Positions 23,218 through 47,528 of a stretch of DNA of 60,189 nt are shown in pieces. This DNA is from Betaproteobacteria bacterium (GTDB taxonomy: Bacteria > Pseudomonadota > Gammaproteobacteria > Burkholderiales > SG8-39). The notes beneath the pieces were generated by a model, which did no database searches, had not been told where the DNA came from, and saw only the letters and a list, made by a program, of their open reading frames with translations. Made by a program: the position numbers and the translations under genes. The stretch covers positions 1 through 60,189 of the forward strand of contig JAFAGU010000054.1 of NCBI GenBank assembly GCA_019237595.1, written 5' to 3'. Each line of letters begins with the position of its first letter. Position 1 is the stretch's first letter.

Positions 23218-23267
23218 GCGGATAACTTTCGCCCTTCCCCTTTCGCTCTCTTTCTCGTTCTCTTCCC

Positions 23268-25903: not shown

Positions 25904-25924
25904 GCGCGCAGGCGCCCCGAACAA

Positions 25925-25966
25925 TTGACGCGGCGCCCGGGCAGGGCTAGCTTAACCATCTGGTTA
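25925..25966 (+). promoter_or_regulatory. putative sigma70 promoter (TTGACG-17 nt-TAGCTT) with abutting 14-bp palindromic operator TAACCAtcTGGTTA
   Basis: -35 at 25925-25930 and -10 at 25948-25953. A perfect inverted repeat spans 25953-25966, 13 nt upstream of the tetR ATG. This is classic TetR autoregulatory geometry. Confidence 0.5.
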
Positions 25967-25979
25967 CTTCCTTCCCTTG

Positions 25980-26606
25980 ATGAAGATCAACGGCAGCCGG
26001 GATCCCGAGCGGACGAGGCGTCGCATCCTCGATGCCGCGACGGGCGAGTTCGCCCGCTACGGCCTCGGCGGCGCGCGCGTCGACCGGATTGCGGCGCGCT
26101 CGCGCGCCAACAAGCGGATGATGTACTACTACTACGGCTCGAAGGAGAGGCTCTTCCTCGCCGTCCTGGAGGAGAGCTATTCGCGCATCCGCAGCGCCGA
26201 GCGCTCGCTCGAGCTCGAGGACCTCGACCCGCGGCGCGCGCTGAGGCGGCTGGTCGAGTTCACCTGGCAGTACTTCGTGCGGCACCCGGAGTTCATGACG
26301 CTGCTGAACAGCGAGAACCTCCACAAGGGCCGGCACCTGAAAGGGTCCTCGCGCGTGCGCGACATGCACTCGCCGCTGCTCGTCACGCTCGCGGCGATCC
26401 TCGCGCGAGGCGAGCGGGAGGGGCTCTTCCGGCGCGGGATCGATCCCGTGCAGCTCTACATCTCGATCGCGGGCGAAGGTTATTTCTATCTTTCCAACCG
26501 CTATACGCTCTCGAGGATCTTCGGCCGAGACCTCATGGCGCCGCGCGCGCTCGCCGAGCGCGCGCGGCACAACGCCGACATGATCCTCCACGCGGTGCGC
26601 AAATGA
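25980..26606 (+). CDS. TetR/AcrR-family transcriptional regulator
   Basis: N-terminal HTH RRRILDAATGEFARYGLGGARVDRIAARSRANKRMMYYYYGSKERLF. A TTG at 25977 is an alternative start. Confidence 0.9.
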   Translation: MKINGSRDPERTRRRILDAATGEFARYGLGGARVDRIAARSRANKRMMYYYYGSKERLFLAVLEESYSRIRSAERSLELEDLDPRRALRRLVEFTWQYFVRHPEFMTLLNSENLHKGRHLKGSSRVRDMHSPLLVTLAAILARGEREGLFRRGIDPVQLYISIAGEGYFYLSNRYTLSRIFGRDLMAPRALAERARHNADMILHAVRK

Positions 26607-26643
26607 GCCTCGCCGCCATCTGGATGCCCCAGGGGCCGAGGCG

Positions 26644-27480
26644 ATGAGAGTCGCCCTCTGCAACGAGGTCATCGCGCCGATGCCCTTTCCCAAGCAGTGC
26701 GAGTACGCGGCGAAGCTCGGCTACGACGGCCTCGAGATCGCGCCGTACACGCTCTCGGAGGAGCCGCATCGCCTGGGCTCGGCGCAAATCGCCGCGGCGC
26801 GGGCGGCCGCCGACGACGCCGGAATCGCGCTCACCGGGCTTCACTGGCTGCTCCTCAAGCCCGCGGGGCTTTCCATCAGCACCCGCGACGACGCGGCGCG
26901 CAGGAGGACGATCGACGTCATGCTCGCGCTCATCGACCTTTGCGCCGCGCTGGGCGGGCGCTACCTCGTGCATGGTTCACCGCATCAGCGGCGGATCGAG
27001 CCGGGCGAGACGCGAGCCGCGGCGCTCGCGCGCGCCCGCGATACCTTCGCCGCGATCGCCGAGCGGGCCGCCGCGGCGGGGGTCCTCTACTGCATCGAGC
27101 CCCTGTCCGCGGACCAGACGCCGCTCATCAACACCCTCGAGGAAGCGGCGCGTCTGGTCGAGGATATCGCGAGCCCTGCCGTGCGGAGCATGCTCGATTG
27201 CAGCGCCGCCGGGCGGATGGAGAAGGAGCCGCTCGCGCTCCTCGTCGAGCGCTGGCTGCCGCGGGGGCTCATCGCGCACGTGCAGGTGAACGATCGCAAC
27301 CGCCGAGGACCGGGGCAGGGCGAGCAGCGCTTCGCGCCGCTCCTCGCCGCGCTCATCAAGCACGGCTACGACGGCGATCTCGCCGTCGAGCCCTTCGACT
27401 ATGTGCCCGACGGGCCGGGCGCCGCGGCGCGCGCGATCGGCTACATCCGCGGCATCCTTGAAGCGCTCTCGCGCGCATGA
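26644..27480 (+). CDS. xylose-isomerase-like TIM-barrel protein (sugar phosphate isomerase/epimerase family)
   Basis: MRVALCNEV...AKLGYDGLEIAP...GLHWLL...YLVHGSP...CIEPL...HVQVND is the AP-endonuclease-2 / TIM-barrel pattern; 278 aa. Confidence 0.8.
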   Translation: MRVALCNEVIAPMPFPKQCEYAAKLGYDGLEIAPYTLSEEPHRLGSAQIAAARAAADDAGIALTGLHWLLLKPAGLSISTRDDAARRRTIDVMLALIDLCAALGGRYLVHGSPHQRRIEPGETRAAALARARDTFAAIAERAAAAGVLYCIEPLSADQTPLINTLEEAARLVEDIASPAVRSMLDCSAAGRMEKEPLALLVERWLPRGLIAHVQVNDRNRRGPGQGEQRFAPLLAALIKHGYDGDLAVEPFDYVPDGPGAAARAIGYIRGILEALSRA

Positions 27481-28898
27481 GCGGCACGCCTCGCTTCACC
27501 ATCACCGAGCTCGCTCTCTTCGAGCGCGACGTGCGCCTGCGCATGCCGTTTCGCTTCGGCGCGGCGACGCTGAGAGAGGCGCCCCAGGCCTTCGTGCACG
27601 CGCGGATCCGGCTCGAGGATGGGCGCGAAGCCGAAGGCGGCGCCGCCGAGCTCATGGTGCCCAAGTGGTTCGACAAGTCGCCCGAGCGCTCAAACGACGA
27701 GAACGTCGCGGACCTGCGCGCGAGCCTCGCGCTCGCGCGCGAGGCCTACCTTGCGGGCGAGGCGAACACCGCCTTCGGGCATTCGATCGATCACTACGGG
27801 CCCCAGATCGCGCTCGGTGCGCTACGCGGCCTGAACAGCCTCACCGCCTGCTTCGGCCCTGCGCTCGTCGACCGTGCCGTGCTCGATGCGCTCTGCCGGG
27901 CGCTCGGCATCTCGTTCTACCGCGCTATCACGGAAAACGCCGCAGGGATCACGGCGCCGGGCTGGCAGGAGGACCTGCTCGCGTTCGACATGGACGAGTT
28001 CCTCTCGAGCCTCGAGCCACGAACGACCATTGCCGCGCGCCATACGGTCGGTCTCCTGGACCCCATCACCGAGACCGACCTGCGCGAGCCCGTGGGCGAC
28101 GGCCTGCCGGAGACGCTCGAGCAGGTGATCGAGGCCTACGGCCATCGCTGGTTCAAGATCAAGGTGAGCGGAAACGTGGCCGCAGACCTGGAGAGGCTCG
28201 CGGCGATCGCGGCGGTGCTCGATCGCCGCGTCGAGAAATACTGCGTCACGCTCGACGGCAACGAGCAATTCGACGACGCGGAAGCGGCGCTCGCGCTATG
28301 GCGTGCCTTGCGAGCCGATCGGCGCCTGGAGCGCCTGGCGGCGGCGGTCGCGTACATCGAGCAGCCGGTGAAGCGCCAGAATGCGCTCGCAAGCGACGTC
28401 TCGGAGCTCGCCGAGGAGCGCCCGGTCCTCCTCGACGAGTCCGACGATTCGCTCGAGGCGTTTCCGCGCGCCCGCAGGCTCGGCTATACCGGCGTTTCGT
28501 CCAAGACCTGCAAGGGCCTGTACAAGTCGGTTCTCAATGCGGCACGCGCGCGCCTCTGGAATCGCGAGGAGGGCGCCGCGCGCTATTTCCTGTCGGGCGA
28601 AGACCTGACCACCCAGGCGGGGCTCGCGGTGCAGCAGGATCTCGCGCTTGCCGCGCTTCTCGGAGTGGAGCATGTCGAGCGCAATGGCCACCACTACGTG
28701 AATGGCATGAGCGGATCGCCGGCCGCGGAGCAGGGCGTCTTTCTCGAGGCCCATGGCGACCTGTACGAGCGAGGCACGGGGGTCGTGCGCCTTCGCATCA
28801 GGGGCGGCGAACTCGCCATCGCGTCGCTCGATCGCCCGGGATATGCGAGCGGCGCGATGCCGGACTGGAAAGCCATGAGGGAGCTGCGCGCGCCATGA
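27477..28898 (+). CDS. atypical long enolase-superfamily protein (muconate-lactonizing-enzyme-like KxK subgroup)
   Basis: 473 aa. It has KIKV (KxK), DGNEQ, IEQP and LDESD, the three metal-ligand acidic positions in order, followed by SSKTCK. This is longer than typical ~370-aa members. Confidence 0.65.
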   Translation: MSGTPRFTITELALFERDVRLRMPFRFGAATLREAPQAFVHARIRLEDGREAEGGAAELMVPKWFDKSPERSNDENVADLRASLALAREAYLAGEANTAFGHSIDHYGPQIALGALRGLNSLTACFGPALVDRAVLDALCRALGISFYRAITENAAGITAPGWQEDLLAFDMDEFLSSLEPRTTIAARHTVGLLDPITETDLREPVGDGLPETLEQVIEAYGHRWFKIKVSGNVAADLERLAAIAAVLDRRVEKYCVTLDGNEQFDDAEAALALWRALRADRRLERLAAAVAYIEQPVKRQNALASDVSELAEERPVLLDESDDSLEAFPRARRLGYTGVSSKTCKGLYKSVLNAARARLWNREEGAARYFLSGEDLTTQAGLAVQQDLALAALLGVEHVERNGHHYVNGMSGSPAAEQGVFLEAHGDLYERGTGVVRLRIRGGELAIASLDRPGYASGAMPDWKAMRELRAP

Positions 28899-30043
28899 GC
28901 GAAAGGCGGATCGGCATCGCCATGCACGGCGTCACGGGCCGGATGGGAACGAACCAGCATCTCGTGCGCTCGATCCTCGCCATCCGTAGCGAGGGCGGCG
29001 TGCGGCTCCGGGACGGCACGAGGCTCGTGCCGGACCCGCTGCTCCTCGGCCGCGATGCCGGGAAGCTTGCCGCGTTGGCGAAAGCGCATGGCGTCGAGCG
29101 CTGGAGCACCGACCTCGACGCTGCGCTGGAAGGCCCGGACGAAGTGTTCTTCGACGCCGCATCGACCAAGCTGCGCCCCGCGATCCTTCGCCGGGCAATC
29201 GCGGCTGGCAAGCATGTCTACTGCGAGAAGCCGGTCGCCACTTCCACGCGCGAGGCCCTCGTGCTCTACCGGGCAGCGCGCAAGGCGCGCGTGAAGCACG
29301 GCGTCGTGCAGGACAAGCTCTGGCTGCCGGGACTGCTCCGTCTGCGCGAGCTCCGTGACGCGGGTTTCTTCGGTCGCATCCTCTCCGTGAAGGGCGAGTT
29401 CGGGTACTGGGTGTTCGAGGGCGGCGAGCGCCAGGCGCCGCAGCGCCCGTCCTGGAACTATCGCAAGGCCGATCGCGGCGGGATGATCCTCGACATGCTC
29501 TGCCACTGGCGCTACGTGCTGGACAACCTCTTCGGCGCCGTCGAGTCCGTGAGCTGCCTGGGCGCGACGCACATTGCCTATCGCCACGACGAGGCGGGCC
29601 GGCGCTACAAGGCTACGGCCGACGACGCGGCCTACGCGAGCTTCCGCCTCGCGAAGGGCGTGGTCGCGCATTTCAATTGCTCCTGGGCGACGCGGGTTCG
29701 GCGCGACGACTTGCTCACGTTGCAGGTCGATGGCACCGACGGCTCCGCGGTGGCTGGCCTTCGGCGCTGCGTCGTGCAGTCGTGGCGCGACACGCCTCGC
29801 CCGGTCTGGAACCCGGACCTGCCGCAGCCGATCGACTTCTACGCAACCTGGAAGACGCTCGACGACAAGCCGGTCGAGAATGCCTTCAAGGCTCAATGGG
29901 AGCTCTTCCTTCGCCACGTTGCGGGCGAAGGCTCCTTTCGCTGGGACCTGATGGAAGGCGCGAAAGGCGTGCAGCTCGCCGAGCTCGGACTGAAGAGCTG
30001 GCGCCAAAGGAAGTGGGTCGACGTGCCGAGGCTGCGCGCATGA
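28895..30043 (+). CDS. Gfo/Idh/MocA-family NAD(P)-dependent oxidoreductase
   Basis: IGIAMHGVTGRMG Rossmann start and the CEKP motif, with an alpha/beta C-terminal domain. ATGA overlap with the upstream gene. Confidence 0.85.
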   Translation: MSERRIGIAMHGVTGRMGTNQHLVRSILAIRSEGGVRLRDGTRLVPDPLLLGRDAGKLAALAKAHGVERWSTDLDAALEGPDEVFFDAASTKLRPAILRRAIAAGKHVYCEKPVATSTREALVLYRAARKARVKHGVVQDKLWLPGLLRLRELRDAGFFGRILSVKGEFGYWVFEGGERQAPQRPSWNYRKADRGGMILDMLCHWRYVLDNLFGAVESVSCLGATHIAYRHDEAGRRYKATADDAAYASFRLAKGVVAHFNCSWATRVRRDDLLTLQVDGTDGSAVAGLRRCVVQSWRDTPRPVWNPDLPQPIDFYATWKTLDDKPVENAFKAQWELFLRHVAGEGSFRWDLMEGAKGVQLAELGLKSWRQRKWVDVPRLRA

Positions 30044-31212
30044 AGCGCGACCGGATCCTCGGCATTCGGCTGCCGACCGAGGCGGGGTCCGAGGAATTTC
30101 CCGTCCATGCGCCGGGCGCATTCGCGAAGCCTTCCCGACCCTTCACGCGCGTAGCGCTCGCGGCGGCTCACGTGGTCGCGGATCCGCTCTCCTCGAGGGA
30201 GCCGTGGCTCGAGGCGGCAATCGACTGGGACGCGACCATTGCCTACCGCCGCCATCTTTGGTCGTGGGGCTTCGGCGTTGCCGAAGCCATGGATACCGCG
30301 CAGCGGGGGATGGGGCTCGATTGGTCGAGCTCGCTCGAGCTCATTCGAAGGTCCATCGATGCCGCAAAAGGCGTCCCGGGCGCCCATGTCTGGTCCGGCG
30401 CCGGCACCGACGACCTGGCCGGGGACCGGCTTCATTCGCTGGAGAGCATCGCCGCCGCCTACGAGGCGCAGTGCGCGGCGATCGAGAAGCTCGGCGGCCG
30501 GATCATCCACATGGCGAGCCGGGCGCTCGCCGCCGCGGCGAAGGGTCCGGACGACTACGCGCGCGTCTACGACCGGGTGATCTCGCAGCTCCGCGCGCCG
30601 GTGATCATCCATTGGCTCGGCGAGATGTTCGACCCGGCGCTGGCGGGCTATTGGGGACGCTCCGACCATCGCGAGGCGATGAGTGTCTGCCTCGGTGTCC
30701 TGGAGCGCAACAAGGAAAAGATCGAAGGCATCAAGATCTCGCTCCTCGACAAGCACAAGGAAATCGAGATGCGCCGCCGGCTGCCGCATGGCGTGCGCAT
30801 GTACACGGGAGACGACTTCAACTTCGCCGAGCTCATCGTCGGCGATTCCGAGGGACATTCGGAGGCGCTCCTCGGCATCTTCGACGCGATCGCGCCCGCG
30901 GCCTCGCATGCGCTTTCGGCGCTTGCAGAAGGGCGCGCCGAGGCGTGCCTGGAGACGCTCGCGCCCACGGTTCCGCTCTCCCGGCACATCTTTCGCGCTC
31001 CCACGCGGTTCTACAAGACGGGCGTTGTGTTCATGGCGTGGCTGAACGGCCACCAGGACCACTTCGTCATGGTGGGCGGCCAACAGTCGGCGCGCAGCGT
31101 CCTGCACCTCGCGGAGCTATTCCGCCTCGCGGACGCGGCGGGCCTTCTCGCCGATCCGGAGCTCGCCTGCCATCGCATGAAGCGGCTCCTCGCGCTGCAC
31201 GGCATCGAATGA
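30040..31212 (+). CDS. conserved hypothetical protein, probably DUF993-type (function unknown)
   Basis: 390 aa with no catalytic motif I can name. The DUF993 assignment rests on my recollection of length and of the recurrent neighbourhood (Gfo/Idh/MocA + TIM-barrel isomerase). It needs an HMM check. Confidence 0.5.
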   Translation: MKRDRILGIRLPTEAGSEEFPVHAPGAFAKPSRPFTRVALAAAHVVADPLSSREPWLEAAIDWDATIAYRRHLWSWGFGVAEAMDTAQRGMGLDWSSSLELIRRSIDAAKGVPGAHVWSGAGTDDLAGDRLHSLESIAAAYEAQCAAIEKLGGRIIHMASRALAAAAKGPDDYARVYDRVISQLRAPVIIHWLGEMFDPALAGYWGRSDHREAMSVCLGVLERNKEKIEGIKISLLDKHKEIEMRRRLPHGVRMYTGDDFNFAELIVGDSEGHSEALLGIFDAIAPAASHALSALAEGRAEACLETLAPTVPLSRHIFRAPTRFYKTGVVFMAWLNGHQDHFVMVGGQQSARSVLHLAELFRLADAAGLLADPELACHRMKRLLALHGIE

Positions 31213-32804
31213 GCCGGCGAAGCAAGATGGTCTCGTTCGAGGCAGCGGCCAGGCTGGTCCGGGACGGCTCGGTGCTCGCCGTGAGCTCCTCGTCGGGACT
31301 CAATTGCCCGGACCGGATGCTCGCGGCGATCGGCGAGCGCTTCGCCTCCGAAGGCCATCCGCGGGAGATCACGTTCTTCATGCCCATTGCGGCCGGCGAC
31401 ATGTACGGCATCAAGGGGATCGACCACATCGCCAGGAAGGGGCTTCTCCGCCGCGTCGTCGGCGGCTCCTATCCGAGCGGCCCTTCGTCGCTCGAGCCGC
31501 CGGCGATCTGGAAGATGATCAGCGCCAACGAGGTCGAGGCCTACAACTTTCCCTCGGGCGTGCTCTTCGACATGCTGCGCGACGTGGCCGCGCGCCGGGC
31601 CGGCGTGCTGACAAGGATCGGCCTCGACACCTTCGTCGATCCGCGCCGCCACGGCGGCAAGATGAACCGGGCGGCTCGAGAAGACCTGGTGCGAGTGGTG
31701 GAGTTCGGCGGCGAGGAGTGGCTGCACTTTCCCAACGTGCTGCCGAACATCGCGATCGTCCGCGGCACGAGCGCCGACCCGGACGGCAACGTCTCGAGCG
31801 AGCACGAAGGCGCGCCGCTCGGCGCGCTCGACGTGGCGCTCGCAACCCACAACGCGGGCGGCGTGGTCATCGCACAGGTGAAGCGTCTCGTGGATCGCGG
31901 CGCGATCCCAGCGCAGCACGTCGCGGTGCCTTCCACGCTGGTGGACTACGTCGTCGTCGACCCGGACCAGATGCAGGCGACGCAGACGCGCTACGACCCC
32001 GCGCTCTCCGGCGAGGCGAAGAAGCCGCGCGCGTCCTTCGAGCGCGTACCCTTCGGCCCCGACAAGGTCATCGCTCGCCGGGCGGCGCTCGAGCTCGCCG
32101 AGGGCGACGCCGTGAACCTCGGGTTCGGCATCTCGCCGCTCGTGCCGCTGATCCTGCTCGAGGAAGGAGACGACGAGGCGGTCACCTGGGCGATCGAGCA
32201 AGGACCGATTGGCGGCATTCCCGCGGGCGGTTTCGTCTTCGGCTGTGCGTTCAACGCGCAGGCCATCATTCCCTCGCCGCAGCAGTTCACGTACTTCCAG
32301 GGCGCGGGCTTCGATCTCTGCATGCTTTCTTTCCTGGAGATCGACCGCCATGGCTCGGTGAACGTCTCGCAGCTCTCCGCCAAGCCGCACGTCACGGCGG
32401 GCTGCGGCGGCTTCGTCGACATCACCTCCCACGCCCGCCGCATCGTGTTCTCGGGCTATTTCCGGGCCGGTGGGCTGCAGCTCGAGATCGCCGGCGAGCG
32501 GATGAAGATCGCCCGCGAAGGAAGCGTCGCCAAGCTCGTGCCCGAGGTCGAGCATGTCACGTTCAGCGGCCGGCGCGGCCGCGCGCAAGCGCAGGAAGTG
32601 ACCTACATCACCGAGCGCTGCGTCCTGCGCCTCGCGAAGGAAGGTCTCGAGGTCACCGAGATCGCGCCGGGCATCGACCTGGAGCGCGACGTCCTTGCTC
32701 GGGCAGGATTCCCGCTCTCGGTATCGCCTGCGCTGAAGACGATGGACGCGCGCCTCTTTCGCCCGGAGCCGATGAAGCTCGCATTGAAGGAGCGGCGAAC
32801 GTGA
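31209..32804 (+). CDS. family-I CoA-transferase, fused alpha/beta (YdiF / acyl-CoA:acetate-3-ketoacid CoA-transferase-like)
   Basis: 531 aa. The N-terminal half has VSFEAAARLVRDGSVLAVSSS...YPSGP. The C-terminal half has GFGI...IEQGPIGGIP, the position of the catalytic Glu. Confidence 0.8.
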   Translation: MSRRSKMVSFEAAARLVRDGSVLAVSSSSGLNCPDRMLAAIGERFASEGHPREITFFMPIAAGDMYGIKGIDHIARKGLLRRVVGGSYPSGPSSLEPPAIWKMISANEVEAYNFPSGVLFDMLRDVAARRAGVLTRIGLDTFVDPRRHGGKMNRAAREDLVRVVEFGGEEWLHFPNVLPNIAIVRGTSADPDGNVSSEHEGAPLGALDVALATHNAGGVVIAQVKRLVDRGAIPAQHVAVPSTLVDYVVVDPDQMQATQTRYDPALSGEAKKPRASFERVPFGPDKVIARRAALELAEGDAVNLGFGISPLVPLILLEEGDDEAVTWAIEQGPIGGIPAGGFVFGCAFNAQAIIPSPQQFTYFQGAGFDLCMLSFLEIDRHGSVNVSQLSAKPHVTAGCGGFVDITSHARRIVFSGYFRAGGLQLEIAGERMKIAREGSVAKLVPEVEHVTFSGRRGRAQAQEVTYITERCVLRLAKEGLEVTEIAPGIDLERDVLARAGFPLSVSPALKTMDARLFRPEPMKLALKERRT

Positions 32805-33250
32805 GCGCGAAGTGGTATGAGGAGGCCGAGGTGGGCGAGCGCTTCCAGACCGGCGGAATCGTCGTGACGGAGAGCCATGTCATGGGCTTTGCCGGCCTTA
32901 CGGGGGATTTCTTCGACCTGCACGTGGACGACGACTTCGCGCACAAGCTTGGCTTTCCCGGGCGGGTGGCGCACGGCATCCTCGGCCTTGCGATCGTCGA
33001 CGGGCTGAAGAACCGCGCCGAAACGCGCTTCCGCGCCGTGGCCTCGCTCGGATGGAACTGGAAGTTCAGGAAACCGATCCTCATCGGCGACCGCATCCGC
33101 GCCGAGATCGAAATTTGCGGCAAGCGCGAGACGAAGCGCGCCGACCGCGGCATCCTCGTGCTCGAGTTCAAGGTCAGGAACCAGCGCGAGGAGGTGGTGC
33201 AGGAAGGAACGAACGAATTGATGGTCCTGCGGAGGCCGCGTGGCGCGTAA
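32801..33250 (+). CDS. MaoC-like (R)-specific enoyl-CoA hydratase/dehydratase, hot-dog fold
   Basis: GTGA overlap with the upstream gene. It has the GDFFDLHVDDDFA...GRVAHG hydratase-2 motif. Confidence 0.85.
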   Translation: MSAKWYEEAEVGERFQTGGIVVTESHVMGFAGLTGDFFDLHVDDDFAHKLGFPGRVAHGILGLAIVDGLKNRAETRFRAVASLGWNWKFRKPILIGDRIRAEIEICGKRETKRADRGILVLEFKVRNQREEVVQEGTNELMVLRRPRGA

Positions 33251-33980
33251 GCCGGCCGCGCTCGTCACGGGCGGAAATCGCGGCATCGGCCGGGGCATCG
33301 TCCTTGCGCTCGCCGCCCGCGGCTTCGACGTCGTGGTGAACGACCTCGATGAGGATGCGCACGGCGACTTTCCCTTCGTGAGGGGCGATATCGCGAAGCT
33401 CGACGGGCACGCGAAGCTCGTCGAGGACGGCTGGCGCGCCTACGGCTCGCTCGATTGCCTCGTCAACAATGCCGGCGTGCAGGTCAAGGTGCGAGGCGAC
33501 CTGCTCGATGTCTCGGCCGAGAGCTTCGACCGGCTCCTCGGCGTGAACCTGCGCGGCACGTTCTTCCTGACGCAGGCGCTCGCGCGCCGCATGCTCGCCG
33601 AGCAGCGGCAGCCGGAGTCGCCGATGCGCTCGATCATCTCGATTTCTTCGATCAACGCTTTCGTCGTCGGCGCCAACCGCGGCGAATACTGCCTGTCGAA
33701 GAGCGCACTCACCATGATGGTGAAGCTCTTCGCCGTCCGGCTTGCCGATGCCGGCATCCGCTGCTACGAAGTCCGGCCGGGAATCATCCGCACCGACATG
33801 ACGCGCCCAGCGGCCGACCGGTACGACAAACTCATTGCCGAGGGACTTACACCGATCCGCCGCTGGGGCGAGCCGCAGGACGTCGGCCGCGCGGTGGCGA
33901 TGCTCGCGAGCGGCGACCTGCCGTATTCCACCGGCGAGGCGCTGCACGTGGACGGCGGCATGCATATGCAGACGCTATGA
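33240..33980 (+). CDS. SDR (3-oxoacyl / 3-hydroxyacyl-thioester reductase-like)
   Basis: GTG start, 11-nt overlap with the upstream gene. It has TGGNRGIGRG, NNAG and YCLSK motifs. Confidence 0.85.
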   Translation: MARKPAALVTGGNRGIGRGIVLALAARGFDVVVNDLDEDAHGDFPFVRGDIAKLDGHAKLVEDGWRAYGSLDCLVNNAGVQVKVRGDLLDVSAESFDRLLGVNLRGTFFLTQALARRMLAEQRQPESPMRSIISISSINAFVVGANRGEYCLSKSALTMMVKLFAVRLADAGIRCYEVRPGIIRTDMTRPAADRYDKLIAEGLTPIRRWGEPQDVGRAVAMLASGDLPYSTGEALHVDGGMHMQTL

Positions 33981-34744
33981 ACATCAGCGGCGCAACGCGC
34001 GTCTATTGCCTGCTCGGGGATCCGCTGCACAAGGCGAGGACGCCCGAGCATTTCAACGGTCTCTTCGCCCAGCGCGGCATCGACGCGGTGATGGTTCCGC
34101 TCGAGGTGCCCGACGGCGCGCTCGCCGAGGCTTTTTCCGTCCTGAGGAAAGTGAAGAACCTGGACGGCCTGATCATCACCATGCCGCACAAGGCCGGCAT
34201 GGCGGGGCTTGTCGACGAGCTCGAGGCGGGCGGCCGCAACGCCGGGGCCATCAACGCCGCGCGGCGCGGCGGCGACGGTCGCTGGCGAGGGGACATGTTC
34301 GACGGCCGGGGCTATACCGGTGCGCTCGCCGCGCGCGGCGTCGATCCGCGCGGCAAGCAAATACATCTGATCGGGGCGGGCGCCGTGGCGAGAGCCATCG
34401 GCTTCGCGCTGCGGGAAGCGGGCGCGGGTGCCTTCACGCTCGTGGACGTCAACCGATCGCGCGCGGCGGCGCTCGCCGGTCTGCTCGAAGCGCGCGTCGC
34501 CGACGAACCCGAAAAGGCGGACGTCGTCGTCAATTGCACGCCGCTCGGCATGAAGGAGGGGGATGCGCTTCCGTGCGATCCGGCGCGGATTTCGCCGGCC
34601 GCCGTCGTGTCCGACGTGACGACGAAGCCCGAAATCACGCCGTTCCTGTCCGCTGCCCGGGCCCGCGGCCACACGGTCACGACCGGGCGCGACATGTTCG
34701 AGGCGCAAGGCGAGCTCATCGCAGGCTTCTTCGGCTGGCGATGA
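33977..34744 (+). CDS. shikimate-dehydrogenase-family (AroE-like) dehydrogenase with altered substrate clamp
   Basis: GDPLHKARTPEHFN replaces the canonical GNPIxHSKSPxxHN. The catalytic Lys (ITMPHK) and Asp (MFDG) are retained. It has a GAGAVARA dinucleotide motif; 255 aa. Confidence 0.75.
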   Translation: MNISGATRVYCLLGDPLHKARTPEHFNGLFAQRGIDAVMVPLEVPDGALAEAFSVLRKVKNLDGLIITMPHKAGMAGLVDELEAGGRNAGAINAARRGGDGRWRGDMFDGRGYTGALAARGVDPRGKQIHLIGAGAVARAIGFALREAGAGAFTLVDVNRSRAAALAGLLEARVADEPEKADVVVNCTPLGMKEGDALPCDPARISPAAVVSDVTTKPEITPFLSAARARGHTVTTGRDMFEAQGELIAGFFGWR

Positions 34745-35166
34745 AATTCTTCGTCGAGATCGGCGAGAGCGCCGAGTTCACGAAGTCCATCGGCGCCGAG
34801 GACCTCGCGCGCTTTGCCGAGCTGAGCGGCGACTTCGACCCGATCCACATGGACGACGCCTATGCCGCGGCTTCGCGGTACGGGCGGCGCATCGCGCACG
34901 GGATCCTCGCCATGGCGCCGCTCTCCGCCGTCTCGGCGATGATCAGCCGGCGCGCCAAGGAGCGCGGCTCACCCGGTGTCTCGGTCTCGATGGGCTACGA
35001 CCGCATCCGCTTCCTCAAGCCGGTGTACATGGGCGACACGCTTACCGCGCGCTACACCATCCAGTCGCTCGAAGGCGACCGCAGCCGCTCGAAGGTCGAG
35101 GTGCTGAACCAGGCCGGCGAGCTCGTCGTCGCCGGCGAGCACATCATGAAGTGGCTCCCCGAGTGA
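34741..35166 (+). CDS. MaoC-like dehydratase, hot-dog fold (second copy)
   Basis: ATGA overlap with the upstream gene. It has the GDFDPIHMDDAYA...RRIAHG motif. Confidence 0.85.
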   Translation: MKFFVEIGESAEFTKSIGAEDLARFAELSGDFDPIHMDDAYAAASRYGRRIAHGILAMAPLSAVSAMISRRAKERGSPGVSVSMGYDRIRFLKPVYMGDTLTARYTIQSLEGDRSRSKVEVLNQAGELVVAGEHIMKWLPE

Positions 35167-36305
35167 GCGACCCGGCGAGGCTCCTGCGCGAGACGGTCCG
35201 GCGTTTCGCGGACGAACGGATCCGCCCGCTCGCCCGCGAGCTCGACGAATCGGAGCGCTTCCCTGCGGAGCTCTACGTCGAGATGGCGAAGCTCGGGCTC
35301 TTCGGCATCACGGTTCCCGATACCGTCGGCGGGGCCGGCATGGACGTCGCCTCCTATGCGGTGGTCATGGAGGAGCTTTCGCGTGGCTACGCATCCGTGG
35401 CCGACCAGTGCGGCCTCGTCGAGCTCGTAGGGACGCTCCTCGCCGAGCATGGCTCGGAGGACCAGAAAGAACGCTATCTCAGGCCGCTTCTCGCGGCGAA
35501 GCGACGCTGTGCCTATGCCCTGACCGAGGCGGAAGCCGGCTCGGACCTGGCCGGACTGAAGGCGTTTGCCGAAAAGCGCGGCGACGGATGGATCCTCGGC
35601 GGCGAGAAGATGTGGATCCACAACGCGCCGGTCTGCGATTTCGCCGCCGTCCTCGCCCGCACGGACAAGGGCGCCGGGCACCGCGGGATGAGCATCTTCA
35701 TCGTCGACCGGGACCTGCGCGGCGTGGCGGCGGGCAAGAAGGAGCACAAGATGGGGCAGCGAGCGTCGCAGGTGGGCGCGCTTGCCTTCACCGACGTGGC
35801 GCTTCCCGCTGCCGCCCTCCTCGGCCCGGAGGGGCGCGGCTTCTACATGATGATGAGCGTCCTGGACAAGGGTCGCGTGGGCATCGCGGCGCTCGCGCTC
35901 GGAATCCTTCAGGCGGCGCTCGACGCCTCGGTCGAGCACGCGCGGCTGCGGCGGCAGTTCGGCCGCGCGATCGCGGAATTCCAGGCGGTGCAGTGGATGA
36001 TCGCCGACATGGCGAAGGACGCGCATGCCGCGCGGCTCCTTGTGCGCGACGCCGCGGCGAAGCTCGACGCCGGCGAGCGCGCCACGATCGAGGCTTCGAT
36101 CGCGAAGTGCTTTGCCTCGGACGCGGCGGTCGCGCACACGGCAAACGCCGTGCAGGTCCATGGCGGCTCGGGCTACATCCGCGGCTTCGAGGTCGAGCGG
36201 CTTTACCGCGACGCAAAAATCACCCAGATCTACGAAGGGACAAACCAGATTCAGCGTATGATCATCGCGAGGCAGGTCCTGGGTAACCAGGCTGTTAATT
36301 CCTGA
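35151..36305 (+). CDS. acyl-CoA dehydrogenase
   Basis: YALTEAEAGSD, GGEKMWI, and the C-terminal catalytic-Glu motif IYEGTNQIQ. GTG at 35163 would give a GTGA overlap and is an equally good start. Confidence 0.9.
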   Translation: MAPRVSDPARLLRETVRRFADERIRPLARELDESERFPAELYVEMAKLGLFGITVPDTVGGAGMDVASYAVVMEELSRGYASVADQCGLVELVGTLLAEHGSEDQKERYLRPLLAAKRRCAYALTEAEAGSDLAGLKAFAEKRGDGWILGGEKMWIHNAPVCDFAAVLARTDKGAGHRGMSIFIVDRDLRGVAAGKKEHKMGQRASQVGALAFTDVALPAAALLGPEGRGFYMMMSVLDKGRVGIAALALGILQAALDASVEHARLRRQFGRAIAEFQAVQWMIADMAKDAHAARLLVRDAAAKLDAGERATIEASIAKCFASDAAVAHTANAVQVHGGSGYIRGFEVERLYRDAKITQIYEGTNQIQRMIIARQVLGNQAVNS

Positions 36306-36316
36306 GGAGGAATTCA

Positions 36317-37294
36317 ATGAAGAAAGCACTGCTGGCGGGCGCCTTCGCGGCCTTCTGCTCGCTTCCCGCCCACGCGCAGAACATCACCTGGCATGGCGCT
36401 TCGCAATTCAACGACGACCACGCCTTCACGAAGACGCTGGTGAAGTTCGAGGATCTGGTGAAGAAGTACTCCGGCAGGCCGGTGAGCTTCGTGCTCCACA
36501 AGAACTCGGAGCTTGGCCTGGAGAAGCAATATTTCGAGTACATGGCGCAGGGCAAGGCCGTGGACTACGGCATCGTGTCCCCGGCGCACATGTCTACCTT
36601 CTCGAAGGCGGCGCCCTTCATCGATGCGCCTTTCGTCTTCAGGGACCACGAGCACTGGAACAAGGTGCTGGACGCGGACCTTTTCAAGCCCATAGCCGAT
36701 GAGATACACCAGAAGGCCGATGTGCTCCTCATTGGCTACGCGGGAGGAGGGACGCGCAATCTTTTCGTCAACAAGCCGGTGCGCAACCTCCAGGACATGA
36801 AAGGCCTCAAGGTCCGGGTTCAGGGGGCGCCCATCTGGAGCCGTACCTTCGCTGCGGTGGGCATGGCGCCGACGGTCATCGCGTACAACGAGATCTACAA
36901 CGCGATACAGAACAACGTCATCTCGGCGGGTGAAAACGAGGCGGCAGGGGTCGAGCAGATGAAGTTCTACGAGGTCGCGCCGCAGCTTTCCATGACACAG
37001 CACGCGATCACGATCCGGCCGATCTGCTTCTCTGGCAAGACGTTCAAGGGCCTCGACAAGGCGATGCAGGCCGCGGTGCTGCGCGCCGGCAGGGAAGCCG
37101 GCGCCTACGGACGACAGGTCGAATCAAGCGAAGACGAGCAGAAGCTCGCGGCGCTCGAGAAAGCGGGGCGGCTGACGCGCGTGGCGTTCACGGACCGGGC
37201 GCAGATGAAGAAACTCGTCGACCCGGTAATGGAGGCTTACGCCAAGGAAATCGGCGCCTCGGAGATCCTCGCCAGGATCAACTCGATCAAATAA
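36317..37294 (+). CDS. dctP: TRAP transporter substrate-binding protein (DctP family)
   Basis: GGAGG RBS. Signal peptide MKKALLAGAFAAFCSLPAHAQ. The GGGTRNLF block contains the carboxylate-binding Arg conserved in the family. Confidence 0.88.
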   Translation: MKKALLAGAFAAFCSLPAHAQNITWHGASQFNDDHAFTKTLVKFEDLVKKYSGRPVSFVLHKNSELGLEKQYFEYMAQGKAVDYGIVSPAHMSTFSKAAPFIDAPFVFRDHEHWNKVLDADLFKPIADEIHQKADVLLIGYAGGGTRNLFVNKPVRNLQDMKGLKVRVQGAPIWSRTFAAVGMAPTVIAYNEIYNAIQNNVISAGENEAAGVEQMKFYEVAPQLSMTQHAITIRPICFSGKTFKGLDKAMQAAVLRAGREAGAYGRQVESSEDEQKLAALEKAGRLTRVAFTDRAQMKKLVDPVMEAYAKEIGASEILARINSIK

Positions 37295-37305
37295 CGCAGC
37301 ACTCG

Positions 37306-37341
37306 GACGCCGCGCCGGCAGCGGCGCGGCGTCTTTTCGTT
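37306..37341 (+). terminator. intrinsic terminator / attenuator between dctP and dctQ
   Basis: GACGCCGCGCC-GGCAGC-GGCGCGGCGTC is a perfect 11-bp stem, followed by TTTTCGTT. Confidence 0.7.
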
Positions 37342-37352
37342 CCGGGGGACGC

Positions 37353-37889
37353 ATGTTGGGAATGCCGGGCAGGAAGCGCACCGCGTGGCGCACGTTTACC
37401 GCGTGGTATGCATGGGGTCTTTCGCAGGTGCTTGCCCTCGCGCTCGTAGTGCTGGTCATCCCCGTGTCGCTGCAGATCTTTTCGCGCTACACCCCGTTCG
37501 TCCCGACCTACATATGGACCGAGGAGATGGCGCGCTTCCTGTTCGTCTGGGTGATCATGCTCGGCAGCATCATCGGCGTCTACGAGAACGCCCATTTCGA
37601 CTGCGACCTGTGGCCTGACTACGGCCCGCGAGTCGACGCCATCGGCCGCCTCCTCGGTCGCGTGGGTGTACTGATCACCGCGCTCATCTTCATCTGGGCC
37701 GGCATCGAATTCACCAAATTCGCGTGGAATCGGACCTCGGAGCTCGGCGACCTGCCGCTCTGGTACATCCATGTTGCCTGGCCCATCGCAGGCGTCTCAT
37801 GGATCGTGTTTCTCGGCGAACAGATGCTCGATGACGTGCGCATCATCCGCGGCCTGGAGCCGATCGATCCGGTGCGGAGACCGATGTGA
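37353..37889 (+). CDS. dctQ: TRAP transporter small permease (DctQ family)
   Basis: About 4 TM segments, with the W.EE..RFLFVW motif typical of DctQ. Confidence 0.85.
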   Translation: MLGMPGRKRTAWRTFTAWYAWGLSQVLALALVVLVIPVSLQIFSRYTPFVPTYIWTEEMARFLFVWVIMLGSIIGVYENAHFDCDLWPDYGPRVDAIGRLLGRVGVLITALIFIWAGIEFTKFAWNRTSELGDLPLWYIHVAWPIAGVSWIVFLGEQMLDDVRIIRGLEPIDPVRRPM

Positions 37890-39205
37890 ACGGCTCGGTC
37901 CTGTCGCCGGTGATGGCCTGCGTGGTCCTGCTCGGTACCTTCGGCGTGCTCATGGCGATGCGGCTGCCGATTGCTTTCGCGCTCGGGCTCTCCTGCGTGC
38001 CGATCCTCGTGATCGAGCCGCGGCTGGATACGGTCGTGCTGATGAGCGAGACATTCAATGCCTACAATTCGTTCATCCTCCTCGCGGTCCCGTTTTTCCT
38101 TCTCACAGCGAACCTCATGAACGCGGGAGGGACGACGGACCGGCTGCTCAGGCTGTCGCGCGCCATGGTGGGCCACTTCCCGGGCGGGCTTGCGCAGATC
38201 AATGTGCTGCTTTCGGTGTTCTTCGCTGGCATTTCGGGCTCGGCGACCGCCGACGCCGCGAGCCAGTCGAAGATTTTCCTGGACGCCCAGAAGAAGGAGG
38301 GCTACGACGACAGTTTCTCCGTCTCCATTACCGCCGTTTCGGCGGTGCTCTCCAACATCTTTCCACCGTCGATCCTGATGGTGGTATGGGGCGGGCTCCT
38401 CACGGTGTCGATAGGCGGCCTGTTTCTCGCCGGGATTATTCCGGGGCTCCTCGTCGGCCTCGCGCAGATGGCCACCGTTCACGTCTACGCGAAGCTGCGC
38501 AATTACCCGACCTACAAGCGCGCCACATTCAAGGAATTCCTCAAGTCGCTCTGGGTTTCAATTCCCGCGCTTACGACGCCCGGGATCATCATCGGCGGAA
38601 AGATCTTCGGCTGGTTCACCGCCACCGAGTCGGCTTGCATTGCCGTCCTCTACGCGCTCGTCATCTCGTTCTTCGTGTACCGCGATCTCGACCTGCGCGG
38701 CTTCTACGGTGCGCTAGTGGATACGGGAAAGCTCGCCGGCGTCGCGCTTTTCTGCGTGGGCACAGCAAGCGTCTTCGGCTGGATCCTCGCGTACTACAAG
38801 ATTCCGGAGGCGGTGCTGGCGGGCGTATCGACCTGGAACATGGGACTGACTGCTACGGGCTTCTTCATCGTCTTCGTCTTCCTCGTCGCGGGGACGTTCC
38901 TCGATTCCATTCCTGCGATCATCATTTGCGCGCCCATCCTGGAGCCGCTCGCCCGGCATGGCGGGATGGATCCGATCCACTTCGCCATGATCAGCATCGT
39001 GTCGCTCGCGTTCGGGCTCGTCACGCCTCCGTACGGAATTACGCTCTCCATCGCGTGCTCGGTCGCCGGGATCAGGATGCGCGAGGCGCTTTGGGATACG
39101 AACATCATGCTGCTTCCCATGCTGGGAGTGCTGATGCTGCTCGTCATCTGGCCCGAGACGGTTCTCTTCCTCCCTCGGCTGATCTCGCCGGAGTTCCTGA
39201 AATAG
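37886..39205 (+). CDS. dctM: TRAP transporter large permease (DctM family)
   Basis: GTGA overlap with dctQ. 439 aa, polytopic, with DctM-like blocks (FFAGISGSATADAA, PPSILMVVWG). Confidence 0.9.
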   Translation: MNGSVLSPVMACVVLLGTFGVLMAMRLPIAFALGLSCVPILVIEPRLDTVVLMSETFNAYNSFILLAVPFFLLTANLMNAGGTTDRLLRLSRAMVGHFPGGLAQINVLLSVFFAGISGSATADAASQSKIFLDAQKKEGYDDSFSVSITAVSAVLSNIFPPSILMVVWGGLLTVSIGGLFLAGIIPGLLVGLAQMATVHVYAKLRNYPTYKRATFKEFLKSLWVSIPALTTPGIIIGGKIFGWFTATESACIAVLYALVISFFVYRDLDLRGFYGALVDTGKLAGVALFCVGTASVFGWILAYYKIPEAVLAGVSTWNMGLTATGFFIVFVFLVAGTFLDSIPAIIICAPILEPLARHGGMDPIHFAMISIVSLAFGLVTPPYGITLSIACSVAGIRMREALWDTNIMLLPMLGVLMLLVIWPETVLFLPRLISPEFLK

Positions 39206-39211
39206 CGCGGC

Positions 39212-40042
39212 ATGGGCGCGCCCGACCCTTCGAGGCTCTCGCTCAATACCGCCACGGTCCGCAAGCAGTGGAAGCTCGCGCAGATACTCGATGGCTGCGC
39301 GCGGCACGGCATCCGCGGCGTGGCGCCGTGGCGCGATCAGGTGCAGGAATTCGGGCTCGACCAGACGGCGCGCCTCGCGAAGACCCACGGCCTCACCGTC
39401 ACGGGCCTTTGCCGCGGCGGCTTCTTCACCGGCAAGAACTGGCTAGAAGACAATCGGCGGGCGATCGCCGAAGCCCACGTGCTGGGCGCGCAGTGCCTCG
39501 TGCTGGTCGTCGGCGGACTGCTCTTCGAGTCGAAGAACCTCGTCCGCGCCCGCGAGGTCGTCCGCGAATCGCTCCAGGAAATCCTTCCCGAAGCGAGGCA
39601 GGCCGGCGTCCCGCTTGCCATCGAGCCGCTGCATCCCATGCAGGCGGCGGAGCGGGCCTGCATAAACACGCTCGAGCAGGCGCTCGACCTCTGCGATGCG
39701 CTGGACCCGGGAGGTTCGCGAGGCGCCCCGGCTCTAGGCGTGGCGGTCGACGCCTACCACGTATGGTGGGACCCGAAGCTCGAAGCGCAGATCCAGCGCG
39801 CGGGGAGCCGCATCCTCGCGTACCACATCTGCGACTGGCTCGTGCCCACGCGCGACCTCCTCAACGACCGCGGCATGATGGGCGACGGCGTCATCGACCT
39901 GCCGCGCATTCGTTGCTGGGTAGAGGCAGCCGGCTACGCCGGCTTCCACGAGGTGGAGATCTTCTCGGAGCTCGACTGGTGGCGGAAGAATCCCGATGAC
40001 GTGCTTGCGACCTGCAAGCAGCGCCACCGGGAGTGCAGCTGA
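39212..40042 (+). CDS. xylose-isomerase-like TIM-barrel protein (second copy; sugar phosphate isomerase/epimerase or dehydratase type)
   Basis: LSLNTATV...HGIRGVAPWRD...LVLVVGG...AIEPLHP...YHVWWD...YHICDW; 276 aa. It lies 6 nt downstream of dctM. Confidence 0.78.
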   Translation: MGAPDPSRLSLNTATVRKQWKLAQILDGCARHGIRGVAPWRDQVQEFGLDQTARLAKTHGLTVTGLCRGGFFTGKNWLEDNRRAIAEAHVLGAQCLVLVVGGLLFESKNLVRAREVVRESLQEILPEARQAGVPLAIEPLHPMQAAERACINTLEQALDLCDALDPGGSRGAPALGVAVDAYHVWWDPKLEAQIQRAGSRILAYHICDWLVPTRDLLNDRGMMGDGVIDLPRIRCWVEAAGYAGFHEVEIFSELDWWRKNPDDVLATCKQRHRECS

Positions 40043-40051
40043 GCCGCCGGG

Positions 40052-41188: not shown

Positions 41189-41231
41189 GCGTTCTCCTTT
41201 CGCTTGCTTGCGTTCTCCTCCGCTTTGAGCC

Positions 41232-42515: not shown

Positions 42516-42523
42516 GGGGCCTC

Positions 42524-43039: not shown

Positions 43040-43044
43040 ATATG

Positions 43045-43071: not shown

Positions 43072-43090
43072 CCTTATGGGTTGACGATCG

Positions 43091-44071: not shown

Positions 44072-44147
44072 GGACTCCTCCTTTGGTAGAATCATCAGTC
44101 ATCATACAACCCAACCGGTAGGCCTCGTCAAGCGACCCGCGCCGCCC

Positions 44148-47522: not shown

Positions 47523-47528
47523 CCCGGG

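Follow-up and report, generated by a model that had tools for sequence, protein, structure and literature searches.

A putative TetR-controlled, TRAP-fed sugar-acid operon of a betaproteobacterium with an unusual, recurrent CoA module

Hexuronates are degraded by an isomerase pathway that employs UxaC/UxuB/UxuA or KduI/KduD together with KdgK/Eda. In the oxidative uronate pathway of Agrobacterium (Udh-Gli-Gci-KdgD), an enzyme of the muconate lactonizing enzyme (MLE) subgroup and an enzyme of the dihydrodipicolinate synthase (DHDPS) family act on a sugar diacid. The levoglucosan (Lgd) and 3-keto-glycoside routes combine Gfo/Idh/MocA oxidoreductases with xylose-isomerase-like triosephosphate isomerase (TIM) barrels in oxidation and beta-elimination, and the E. 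coli ydiB-aroD-ydiF-ydiO neighbourhood and the Streptomyces shikimate-to-cyclohexanecarbonyl-coenzyme A (CoA) cassette serve as further systems for comparison. Here we analyze a locus of 15 genes (25980-40042) on a 60,189-bp contig of a Betaproteobacteria metagenome-assembled genome (MAG); the whole contig is referred to as the window. Our best explanation, mechanism included, which could as readily prove wrong as right, is that these genes form one TetR-autoregulated catabolic operon, a rare variant of a widespread regulon. The operon would be fed with an acid sugar by a tripartite ATP-independent periplasmic (TRAP) importer and built on an uncharacterised core to which an unusual, recurrent CoA module has been joined.

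The locus shares features with each of these systems and departs from each. As in the hexuronate isomerase pathway, a TRAP system would take up a uronate: the solute-binding protein has a relative encoded in a UxuA/PfkB locus, a Rhizobium homologue of the enolase-superfamily protein lies beside KduI/IolB, and the inferred logic (dehydration, ketol isomerisation, reduction, and aldol cleavage) would be the same. However, the window encodes no UxaC, UxuA, UxuB, KduI, KduD, KdgK, Eda, or kinase, and the steps proposed for it would fall to non-homologous enzymes. The pairing of an enolase-superfamily enzyme with a possibly DHDPS-like enzyme recalls Udh-Gli-Gci-KdgD, and Udh-like and Amidohydro_2 genes adjoin the operon, but the likeness is one of enzyme type, no alpha-ketoglutarate-semialdehyde dehydrogenase is present here, and the TIM barrels, the Gfo/Idh/MocA protein, and the CoA genes have no counterpart there. 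The levoglucosan and 3-keto-glycoside routes share the association of a Gfo/Idh/MocA protein with two AP_endonuc_2 TIM barrels, but scores fall far under the cut-offs and the enolase-superfamily, DUF993, and CoA genes are without counterpart in those routes. Finally, a YdiF-type CoA-transferase, a shikimate-dehydrogenase-family protein, and an acyl-CoA dehydrogenase (ACAD) occur together as in the E. coli and Streptomyces systems; unlike these, the window lacks a dehydroquinase, its shikimate-dehydrogenase-family protein is not YdiB/AroE-like at the substrate-binding residues, its ACAD is butyryl-CoA-dehydrogenase-like rather than YdiO-like, and its setting is catabolic, with an importer.

Gene content and candidate regulation

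At a G+C content of about 68%, raw lists of open reading frames (ORFs) from this contig are crowded with spurious frames. Genes were called from a frame plot of third-position GC (GC3) and a scan of start codons, and families were assigned with Pfam and NCBIfam. This gave one clean series of 15 genes, all on the plus strand:

25980-26606, plus: g1, TetR (TetR_N and TetR_C_29; Pfam 2e-47 and 2e-10)
26644-27480, plus: g2, TIMa, xylose-isomerase-like TIM barrel (Pfam AP_endonuc_2, 7e-35)
27477-28898, plus: g3, ENO, long enolase-superfamily protein of 473 aa (MR_MLE_C, 1e-11, no other Pfam domain)
28895-30043, plus: g4, GFO, Gfo/Idh/MocA NAD(P) oxidoreductase (Pfam)
30040-31212, plus: g5, DUF993, full-length (PF06187, 8e-179)
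31209-32804, plus: g6, fused family-I CoA-transferase of the YdiF/Pct type, 531 aa (CoA_trans, 7e-21)
32801-33250, plus: g7, MaoC1, (R)-specific hydratase/dehydratase (PF01575, 8e-21)
33240-33980, plus: g8, short-chain dehydrogenase/reductase (SDR), 3-ketoacyl reductase-like (adh_short_C2, 4e-49)
33977-34744, plus: g9, AroE-like, shikimate-dehydrogenase family (Shikimate_dh_N, 1.5e-15)
34741-35166, plus: g10, MaoC2 hydratase/dehydratase (PF01575, 8e-21)
35163 (or 35151)-36305, plus: g11, ACAD (three ACAD domains, N, M, and C)
36317-37294, plus: g12, DctP, TRAP solute-binding protein (PF03480, 2e-54)
37353-37889, plus: g13, DctQ, small TRAP permease (PF04290, 2e-26)
37886-39205, plus: g14, DctM, large TRAP permease (PF06808, 8e-93)
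39212-40042, plus: g15, TIMb, second xylose-isomerase-like TIM barrel, SMc04130 family (AP_endonuc_2, 8e-34)

An earlier reading of the sequence alone (the sequence-only reading) had named these families, and Pfam and NCBIfam agree with it for every one; in NCBIfam, no equivalog was reached for any enzyme, a generic SDR model excepted. Its claim that nearly all enzyme junctions are 4-nt overlaps was also borne out. Among the nine junctions from g2 to g11 there are seven 4-nt ATGA/GTGA overlaps, including that between DUF993 and the CoA-transferase (g5/g6), and one 11-nt overlap (g7/g8); the g10/g11 junction also comes to 4 nt with an ACAD start at 35163, which the 380-aa protein recorded for the contig implies. 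The overlaps are kept in L096, one of the related loci (numbered with the prefix L throughout). Together with the predicted operator described below, they support the proposal that the genes form a single TetR-gated, translationally coupled unit. The tetR frame itself, which had been taken to open at 25925, starts at 25977/25980; the ORF at 25925 lies in another frame that has no GC3 support.

Membership of g1 in the TetR family is indicated by its helix-turn-helix (TetR_N), its C-terminal TetR_C_29 domain, and a palindrome in its own promoter region. This palindrome, TAACCATCTGGTTA, is an exact 6-2-6 repeat, as had been claimed, and is placed 11 nt ahead of tetR; with up to two mismatches, 0.08 copies would be expected in the window by chance. 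Three candidate signals were noted:

25953-25966, no strand: candidate TetR operator TAACCATCTGGTTA (exact palindrome in the window and conservation in related loci)
25925-25953, plus: candidate sigma-70 promoter TTGACG-17 nt-TAGCTT (read from the sequence; abuts the palindrome; weak)
37305-37334, plus: GC-rich hairpin with T-rich tail, TTTTCGTT (13-bp stem with 11 GC pairs; 12-nt arms 100% complementary)

The palindrome motif, allowing at most one mismatch, occurs 37 times across 1.31 Mb of related loci, against a composition-based chance estimate of about 0.4 hits, an enrichment of roughly 100-fold. About 60% of the hits lie outside ORF calls and many of the others are near gene starts that front cluster operons, where they precede ENO, TIMa, ATP-binding cassette (ABC), tripartite tricarboxylate transporter (TTT), or MetE-like genes. 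In Sinorhizobium meliloti (L103), operator-like palindromes at 6734 and 7608 occupy both promoter regions around the tetR homologue, namely the divergent ABC/tetR promoter region and the gap between tetR and GFO. The regulon therefore spans Alpha- and Betaproteobacteria, and its core is predicted to be controlled by TetR through the putative conserved operator TAACCAnnTGGTTA.

A consensus promoter scan of 25500-41500 returned no promoter-like site, the TTGACG-17-TAGCTT element being too weak for the scan. The hairpin is the one strong hairpin inside the array and is located between dctP and dctQ, where it could terminate transcription in part or stabilise the mRNA and so raise expression of the binding protein. 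A second palindrome-like site, TAACCAGGCTGTTA (36284-36297), overlaps the end of the ACAD gene directly ahead of dctP. It has two mismatches, and we rejected it as a second operator because it is not conserved in L096 or in any other CoA-type locus.

A widespread core and an exchangeable slot

To place the operon among its relatives, ENO was scanned against one genome per species, which gave at least 599 matching stretches; the best 80 were kept, and the resulting census covers 83 non-redundant loci analyzed with our own ORF calling and clustering. In these loci, the neighbours of ENO are GFO (47 loci), NMT1-type ABC importers (45), TIMa (43), DUF993 (41), TetR orthologues (30), TIMb (25), MetE-like proteins (23), TctABC (about 20), DHDPS-like proteins (20), this DctPQM (17), TauD (14), and CoA-transferase (9). 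TIMa directly precedes ENO in 29 loci and GFO is followed by DUF993 in 30, while DUF993 is followed by TIMb in 12 (all without the TRAP block), by TauD in 10, and by the CoA-transferase in seven. The core thus consists of two units, TIMa-ENO and GFO-DUF993-TIMb, which are partnered with alternative importers (NMT1-type ABC, TTT, CUT1 ABC, or TRAP). Many ENO loci (L013, L016, L024, L027, L042, L043, L057, L081, and others) also share recurring MetE-like, NAD-epimerase, GNAT, DHDPS-like, and NMT1-type binding proteins, at times with PhyH or an amine oxidase.

The regulon was found in Burkholderiales and Hyphomicrobiales. Chelatococcus has the same core with a TetR, and S. meliloti 1021 encodes GFO, DUF993, ENO, and TIMb with a TetR and its operator-like palindrome in the cluster SMc04130-SMc04134 (numbering taken from PDB names). 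The S. meliloti cluster differs in lacking the TIMa-ENO adjacency and the TRAP, TauD, and CoA genes, and in having a CUT1 sugar ABC importer. Searches of the accessible literature found no functional study of DUF993, of SMc04129-04138, of the family combinations, of ydiF/ydiB/ydiO, or of taluronate. We conclude that no characterised homologous pathway was found and that the core is experimentally uncharacterised, so the literature searched does not tie homologous clusters to a described pathway, an outcome that would have counted against the sequence-only reading. That reading had further stated that no characterised pathway uses sugar-type and CoA-type enzymes on one substrate. This stands in that no homologous pathway was found, but is too strong as worded, given what is generally known: the oxidative catabolism of deoxyribonate ends in CoA esters.

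The position of the CoA genes is best seen against the close relatives that share a conserved transketolase-GAPDH-PGK-pyruvate kinase (tkt-gap-pgk-pyk) block, which lies within 18275-25903 upstream of the operon. These relatives have the order TetR-(transporter)-TIMa-ENO-GFO-DUF993-TauD-DctPQM-TIMb, and six CoA-type genes stand in the window at the position of their TauD. Seventeen of the 83 loci have this TRAP system: 13 carry TauD, two the CoA-transferase, two neither, and none both. TauD and the CoA-transferase do not co-occur in any of the 83 loci, and TauD is found without the TRAP system once, at a contig end. The block that stands between DUF993 and TIMb is therefore an exchangeable TRAP-linked module. 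In its core genes the window is nearer to TauD-type loci (74-76% identity for DUF993) than to other CoA-type loci (67-69%), whereas for the CoA-transferase and MaoC1 it shares 71-76% identity with the latter; this contrast points to module exchange and not to vertical descent of the whole array. The CoA genes, which had been viewed as an integral half of the cluster, thus prove to be an exchangeable insert, present in a minority of loci, at a position normally taken by TauD.

The sugar-type and CoA-type genes do co-occur elsewhere, as the sequence-only reading required. The full array is found in L096 and L097 (two MAG assemblies) in the same order, ENO-GFO-DUF993-CoA-transferase-MaoC-SDR-AroE-like-MaoC-ACAD-DctPQM-TIMb, and the enzyme genes share 69-85% identity with their counterparts in the window; overlaps and downstream neighbours are the same. 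A reduced form, DUF993-CoA-transferase-MaoC-(crotonase)-DctPQM-(SDR)-AroE-like-TIMb, is present in L075, L087, L088, and L091, and also in L047, where the sequence ends after MaoC; MaoC1 follows the CoA-transferase in all of these, in L096, and in the window. L100 carries GFO-MaoC-SDR-AroE-like-ACAD. In L087, a 307-aa BtuF/Peripla_BP_2-like protein (3317-4240) is encoded between DUF993 and the CoA-transferase. An alphaproteobacterial form comprises six loci with a CoA-transferase 39-45% identical to that of the window, adjoining DUF993 in four and with a TetR and an Old Yellow Enzyme-type flavoprotein nearby in most. Finally, L098, L099, and L101 have the arrangement GntR-Epimerase-(Amidohydro_2)-MaoC2-ACAD-(SDR) beside a homologue of a second TRAP system of the window, their MaoC2 and ACAD (ACAD at about 9000-11100) being 65-68% and 78-79% identical to those of the window. 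A metagenome scan with the AroE-like protein returned nine loci, and L096 and L097 were found via the ACAD; the full cassette is judged rare from limited sampling.

An unlikely alternative is the juxtaposition of two unrelated pathways, with a CoA cassette for short-chain or dicarboxylic acyl-CoAs (beta-oxidation-like or itaconate/methylsuccinate-like) that came to rest in a recombination hot spot and, though co-transcribed with the sugar genes, serves another substrate. The cassette is missing from most related loci and its slot is variable; the operon follows the conserved tkt-gap-pgk-pyk block, after which content differs among relatives; MaoC2-ACAD orthologues occur in another operon elsewhere; and all CoA enzymes score as generic family members only. 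The related MAGs L001, L008, and L020 keep the tkt-gap-pgk-pyk anchor but differ in the cluster genes that come after it, suggesting a module-exchange hot spot. Mere juxtaposition, however, would not readily account for the 4-nt overlap between DUF993 and the CoA-transferase that is kept in L096, for the adjacency of these two genes in two distant lineages with differing gene orders, for the repeated joining of CoA-type genes to sugar-type partners in new permutations (L075, L087, L100, L098), or for the strict exclusivity of TauD and CoA-transferase in the TRAP-linked slot. A gene for a TPR protein (24425 or 24704 to 25903) separates pyk from tetR in the window alone among related loci.

Enzymes, importer, and probable substrate

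Among the core enzymes, TIMa is closest to D-psicose/D-tagatose 3-epimerases in the PDB (about 1e-14), making ketose 3-epimerases its nearest class, and it matches 3-keto-glucoside 4-epimerase weakly, with scores far below the family cut-offs. ENO has a full enolase-superfamily fold in its AF2 model (pLDDT 78), and Foldseek returned full-length matches to the superfamily at probability 1.0, with 12-21% identity to solved members. The superfamily combines a capping domain with a modified TIM barrel that has Asp/Glu/Asp metal ligands at strands 3-5, and by these matches and its residues D260, E295, and D320 ENO belongs to it. K227, D260, E295, D320, and K343 are conserved (D260, E295, and D320 invariantly) and K229 is near-invariant, consistent with an MLE-type two-base active site; the enzyme is accordingly expected to take a proton from the carbon alpha to a carboxylate. 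The muconate cycloisomerase function or any other named MLE function was rejected (TIGR02534 at 31.6 bits against a cut-off of 335; at most 21% identity; KxK and K343 present), and ENO is structurally no nearer to Gci, GlucD, or TalrD than to other enolase-superfamily members. ENO, which has 7788 homologues at E<=1e-5 among 8000 candidates scored, represents a new long subgroup of the superfamily.

GFO matches PDB entry 3oqb, deposited as 'Oxidoreductase' without further detail, at 551 bits. The next matches, at 1e-15 to 1e-14, are scyllo-inositol/L-glucose dehydrogenases and 6a3f ('Putative dehydrogenase'). It has EKP and DxxxH motifs, and its matches to levoglucosan dehydrogenase are weak, with scores far below the family cut-offs. 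A myo-inositol iol pathway was dismissed, as GFO reaches 50 bits where IolG requires 355 and no IolD, IolB, or IolC is found among the 15 genes. DUF993 matches 4dnh, an entry deposited as uncharacterised, and apart from this its profile matches DHDPS alone (E 0.001-0.012), aligned on a GIK...TGDD stretch that we take to be the Schiff-base lysine region of DHDPS. The lysine, K232, is kept in 14 of 17 diverse members and in 36 of 36 cluster members, and S. meliloti and Chelatococcus records label DUF993 homologues 'dihydrodipicolinate synthase family protein'. DUF993, a family of 1983 representative clusters at 50% identity, is therefore probably a Schiff-base TIM-barrel enzyme akin to DHDPS and N-acetylneuraminate lyase (NAL), the link to DHDPS being suggestive; pairwise BLASTP gave a motif-level match and nothing longer. 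An exact copy of the DUF993 sequence was absent from the assembly collection. TIMb matches 3qc0 and 3ju2 (SMc04130) at about 335 bits, both without functional annotation, and IolI at 1.5e-8. Three core proteins thus have structural-genomics relatives (4dnh, 3oqb, and 3ju2/3qc0) named 'uncharacterized protein', 'oxidoreductase', or 'sugar isomerase'; 3ju2 and 4dnh come from S. meliloti 1021, and 3oqb and 3qc0 from other organisms.

For the CoA-type enzymes g6-g11, NCBIfam matches are those of generic family members at most. The CoA-transferase (g6) has the features of a family-I enzyme of the YdiF/Pct type, with fused alpha and beta domains that together span about 530 aa and with an EXGXXG stretch (EQGPIGG at about residue 330) that presumably holds the catalytic Glu; it aligns with E. 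coli YdiF (2ahu, 374 bits) over residues 6-528 of 531. MaoC1 (GDFFDLH) and MaoC2 (GDFDPIH) keep the Asp and His of the hydratase-2 motif expected of MaoC (R)-hydratases, and the SDR (g8) scores 348 bits with NF009386 (cut-off 250) and has a YxxxK motif. The AroE-like g9 falls under every NCBIfam shikimate-dehydrogenase cut-off (best 141 bits against 252), and its best PDB match is 4k28, an 'SDH family protein' and non-AroE entry. In an alignment with 2egg, the Lys/Asp dyad is kept and the equivalents of S14, T101, and Y215, which we assume to bind shikimate, are A, F, and T. As read from this alignment, g9 appears to have lost the residues that bind the shikimate carboxylate, and a canonical AroE or YdiB was rejected on these replacements and on the score. 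The ACAD (g11) is butyryl-CoA-dehydrogenase-like, with the features of its family and the catalytic Glu E362 in IYEGT; its best NCBIfam matches are AcrC (369 bits) and cyclohexane-1-carbonyl-CoA dehydrogenase (312 bits), both under cut-off. A cyclohexanecarboxyl-CoA pathway (Ali/Bad) was discarded, the ACAD scoring 312 against 650 and 218 against 575 bits, with no crotonase in the window; L075-type variants, in contrast, do have a crotonase.

The importer offers clues to the substrate. DctP, DctQ, and DctM are encoded together, and DctP carries the GGGTRNLF motif reported in the sequence-only reading, its carboxylate-binding Arg aligning with the same motif in 4nx1. The sole close solved relative of DctP is the Sulfitobacter protein 4nx1/4ovp (342 bits, 51% identity; next match 126 bits), whose gene lies in a locus of the layout GntR-cupin-SDR-Aldedh-DctPQM-UxuA-PfkB, that of a route from hexuronate to mannonate to 2-keto-3-deoxygluconate. 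Assignment of DctP to the C4-dicarboxylate class, which would have spoken against the sequence-only reading, was therefore rejected: by similarity, its best solved relative belongs to a hexuronate-type locus with UxuA/PfkB. In Rhizobium johnstonii 3841 (L102; pRL10, 282938-295249), an ENO homologue with 54% identity is part of a LacI-controlled operon with an Opp-type (SBP_bac_5) ABC importer, a KduI/IolB protein, a GH39 glycosidase, a TIM barrel, and a 2-hydroxyacid dehydrogenase. GH39 is the family of alpha-L-iduronidase and beta-xylosidase. The context of GH39 and KduI/IolB likewise indicates uronates. We favour a hexuronate-like acid over quinate or shikimate because of the UxuA/PfkB context of 4nx1, the Rhizobium context of ENO, and the sugar operon that adjoins the locus.

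The sequence-only reading had instead proposed an alicyclic import, such as quinate, shikimate, or a cyclitol carboxylate, that would be oxidised, activated with CoA, and then dehydrated, reduced, and oxidised, in parallel with the Streptomyces shikimate-to-cyclohexanecarbonyl-CoA cassette or the E. coli ydiB-aroD-ydiF-ydiO genes. Its alicyclic substrate comes out weaker than the hexuronate type and seems improbable to us. It is true that all CoA-type variants seen pair the CoA-transferase with a gene of the shikimate-dehydrogenase family, that this transferase is homologous to YdiF over its full length, that the second-best NCBIfam match of the ACAD is cyclohexane-1-carbonyl-CoA dehydrogenase, and that the loss of carboxylate-binding residues in g9 would suit a thioester substrate. 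In general terms, too, the set of GFO, Schiff-base TIM barrel, and AP_endonuc_2 protein mirrors that of QuiA, type-I dehydroquinase, and dehydroshikimate dehydratase. Yet g9 lies under all shikimate-dehydrogenase cut-offs, is nearest to 4k28, and belongs to a family that also includes the sugar-acting 5-ketofructose reductase; the window has neither a dehydroquinase gene nor a ring-hydrolysing crotonase; TIMa is nearest to ketose 3-epimerases; the ACAD, at 312 bits, is far under the cut-off of 650; and uronates are indicated by the relative of DctP as well as by the surroundings of ENO in Rhizobium. A quinate/shikimate catabolic cluster of the qui/qsu kind was rejected, as none of the 15 genes has a dehydroquinase domain and the TIM barrels are nearest to ketose epimerases and to SMc04130/IolI.

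Proposed pathway and its meaning

In the mechanism that we propose, DctPQM would import a polyhydroxy-carboxylate of the hexuronate type in its ring form. ENO would abstract the proton alpha to the carboxylate, leading to 4,5-dehydration or C5 epimerisation, and TIMa would isomerise or epimerise the resulting keto-sugar acid. GFO would carry out an NAD(P)-linked oxidoreduction, DUF993, as a DHDPS/NAL-like Schiff-base enzyme, would cleave or dehydrate a keto-deoxy acid, and TIMb would act on a product. The CoA block may likewise work on this carbon skeleton: here the YdiF-type transferase would form a thioester, MaoC would catalyze beta-elimination or hydration adjacent to it, the SDR and the AroE-like g9 would oxidise hydroxyls, and the ACAD would set the alpha,beta bond. 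The TRAP-linked module would thus prepare or open the TRAP substrate, in most relatives by means of TauD and O2 and here by the CoA steps, which would stand in for the TauD-family reaction (loss of a substituent or oxidation beside the carboxylate) without a need for O2. This functional equivalence is argued mainly from the strict exclusivity of TauD and the CoA-transferase in one slot. Tentatively, and with considerably more doubt than belief, we suggest that the locus encodes a hitherto undescribed CoA-thioester branch of sugar-acid catabolism, in which activation of a hexuronate-type or keto-deoxy sugar acid would fall to a YdiF-type transferase, and MaoC, SDR, AroE-like, and ACAD enzymes would replace TauD without O2.

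A further alternative arises from the adjacent locus (40052-48524). Its minus strand encodes galM, DctM, (DctQ), and DctP, a second TRAP system, and its plus strand a GntR/FCD regulator, a 2-hydroxyacid dehydrogenase, an Epimerase-family protein (45853-46692) whose best match is the sugar-1-dehydrogenase-like Azf, a LigI-like Amidohydro_2 protein encoded by a lactonase-like gene (46689-47522), and an IolG-like Gfo/Idh/MocA protein. With the exception of galM, this locus is kept beside the main operon in L096 and L097. The TetR and GntR operons could together form a variant oxidative uronate or aldarate route, with the CoA genes degrading a C5/C6 keto-dicarboxylate in place of an aldehyde dehydrogenase, although we give this little likelihood. 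In this variant, the 45853-46692 gene would stand for Udh, the Amidohydro_2 gene (46689-47522) for Gli or a lactonase, ENO for Gci or an aldarate dehydratase, and DUF993 for KdgD.

All four analogue types do lie within 22 kb, both in the window and in L096, two TRAP systems are present, the island has no aldehyde dehydrogenase, and MaoC2-ACAD orthologues directly follow the Epimerase-Amidohydro_2 pair in L098, L099, and L101; MaoC and ACAD pairs are generally known to act on C5 dicarboxylyl-CoAs in other pathways. Against this, an Epimerase-type gene is near ENO in only four of 83 loci, ENO is no closer to Gci, GlucD, and TalrD than to the rest of its superfamily, TIMa, TIMb, and GFO are left without a role, and the two operons have separate regulators.

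Several observations also weigh against the CoA-dependent hexuronate route that we prefer. The substrate, the reaction order, and the equivalence of TauD with the CoA genes are all things that we infer. DctP is only 51% identical to 4nx1, whose bound ligands are taken to be D-taluronate and D-mannuronate; a review of TRAP systems does not include 4nx1. Importers of the ABC or TTT kind prevail at ENO loci, and S. meliloti has one of the CUT1 sugar ABC kind, so the core substrate is not necessarily a uronate taken up from outside. DUF993 matches DHDPS weakly (E 0.001), K232 is lost in three of 17 distant members, and hhalign of DUF993 against the DHDPS-like family of the cluster gave no significant match. 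In addition, MaoC2-ACAD orthologues occur in a GntR/Epimerase/Amidohydro_2 operon without a nearby CoA-transferase, and MaoC2 and ACAD may serve a neighbouring pathway. The operon contains no thiolase, lyase, or electron transfer flavoprotein gene, which leaves the CoA route without a visible end.

Soil and freshwater Burkholderiales, like rhizobia, commonly carry the core cluster, whose enzymes are without a known reaction. The sister loci, which differ mainly in having TauD or the CoA set, form a natural pair for finding the step that needs oxygen or a thioester, and the cluster is present in tractable organisms, including S. meliloti 1021, R. johnstonii 3841, and isolates of Ramlibacter and Caenimonas. 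If the proposal is true, it would provide first functions for DUF993 and for an enolase-superfamily subgroup of thousands of members, and a CoA-dependent sugar-acid route would be a new bacterial way to use plant- or algal-derived uronates.

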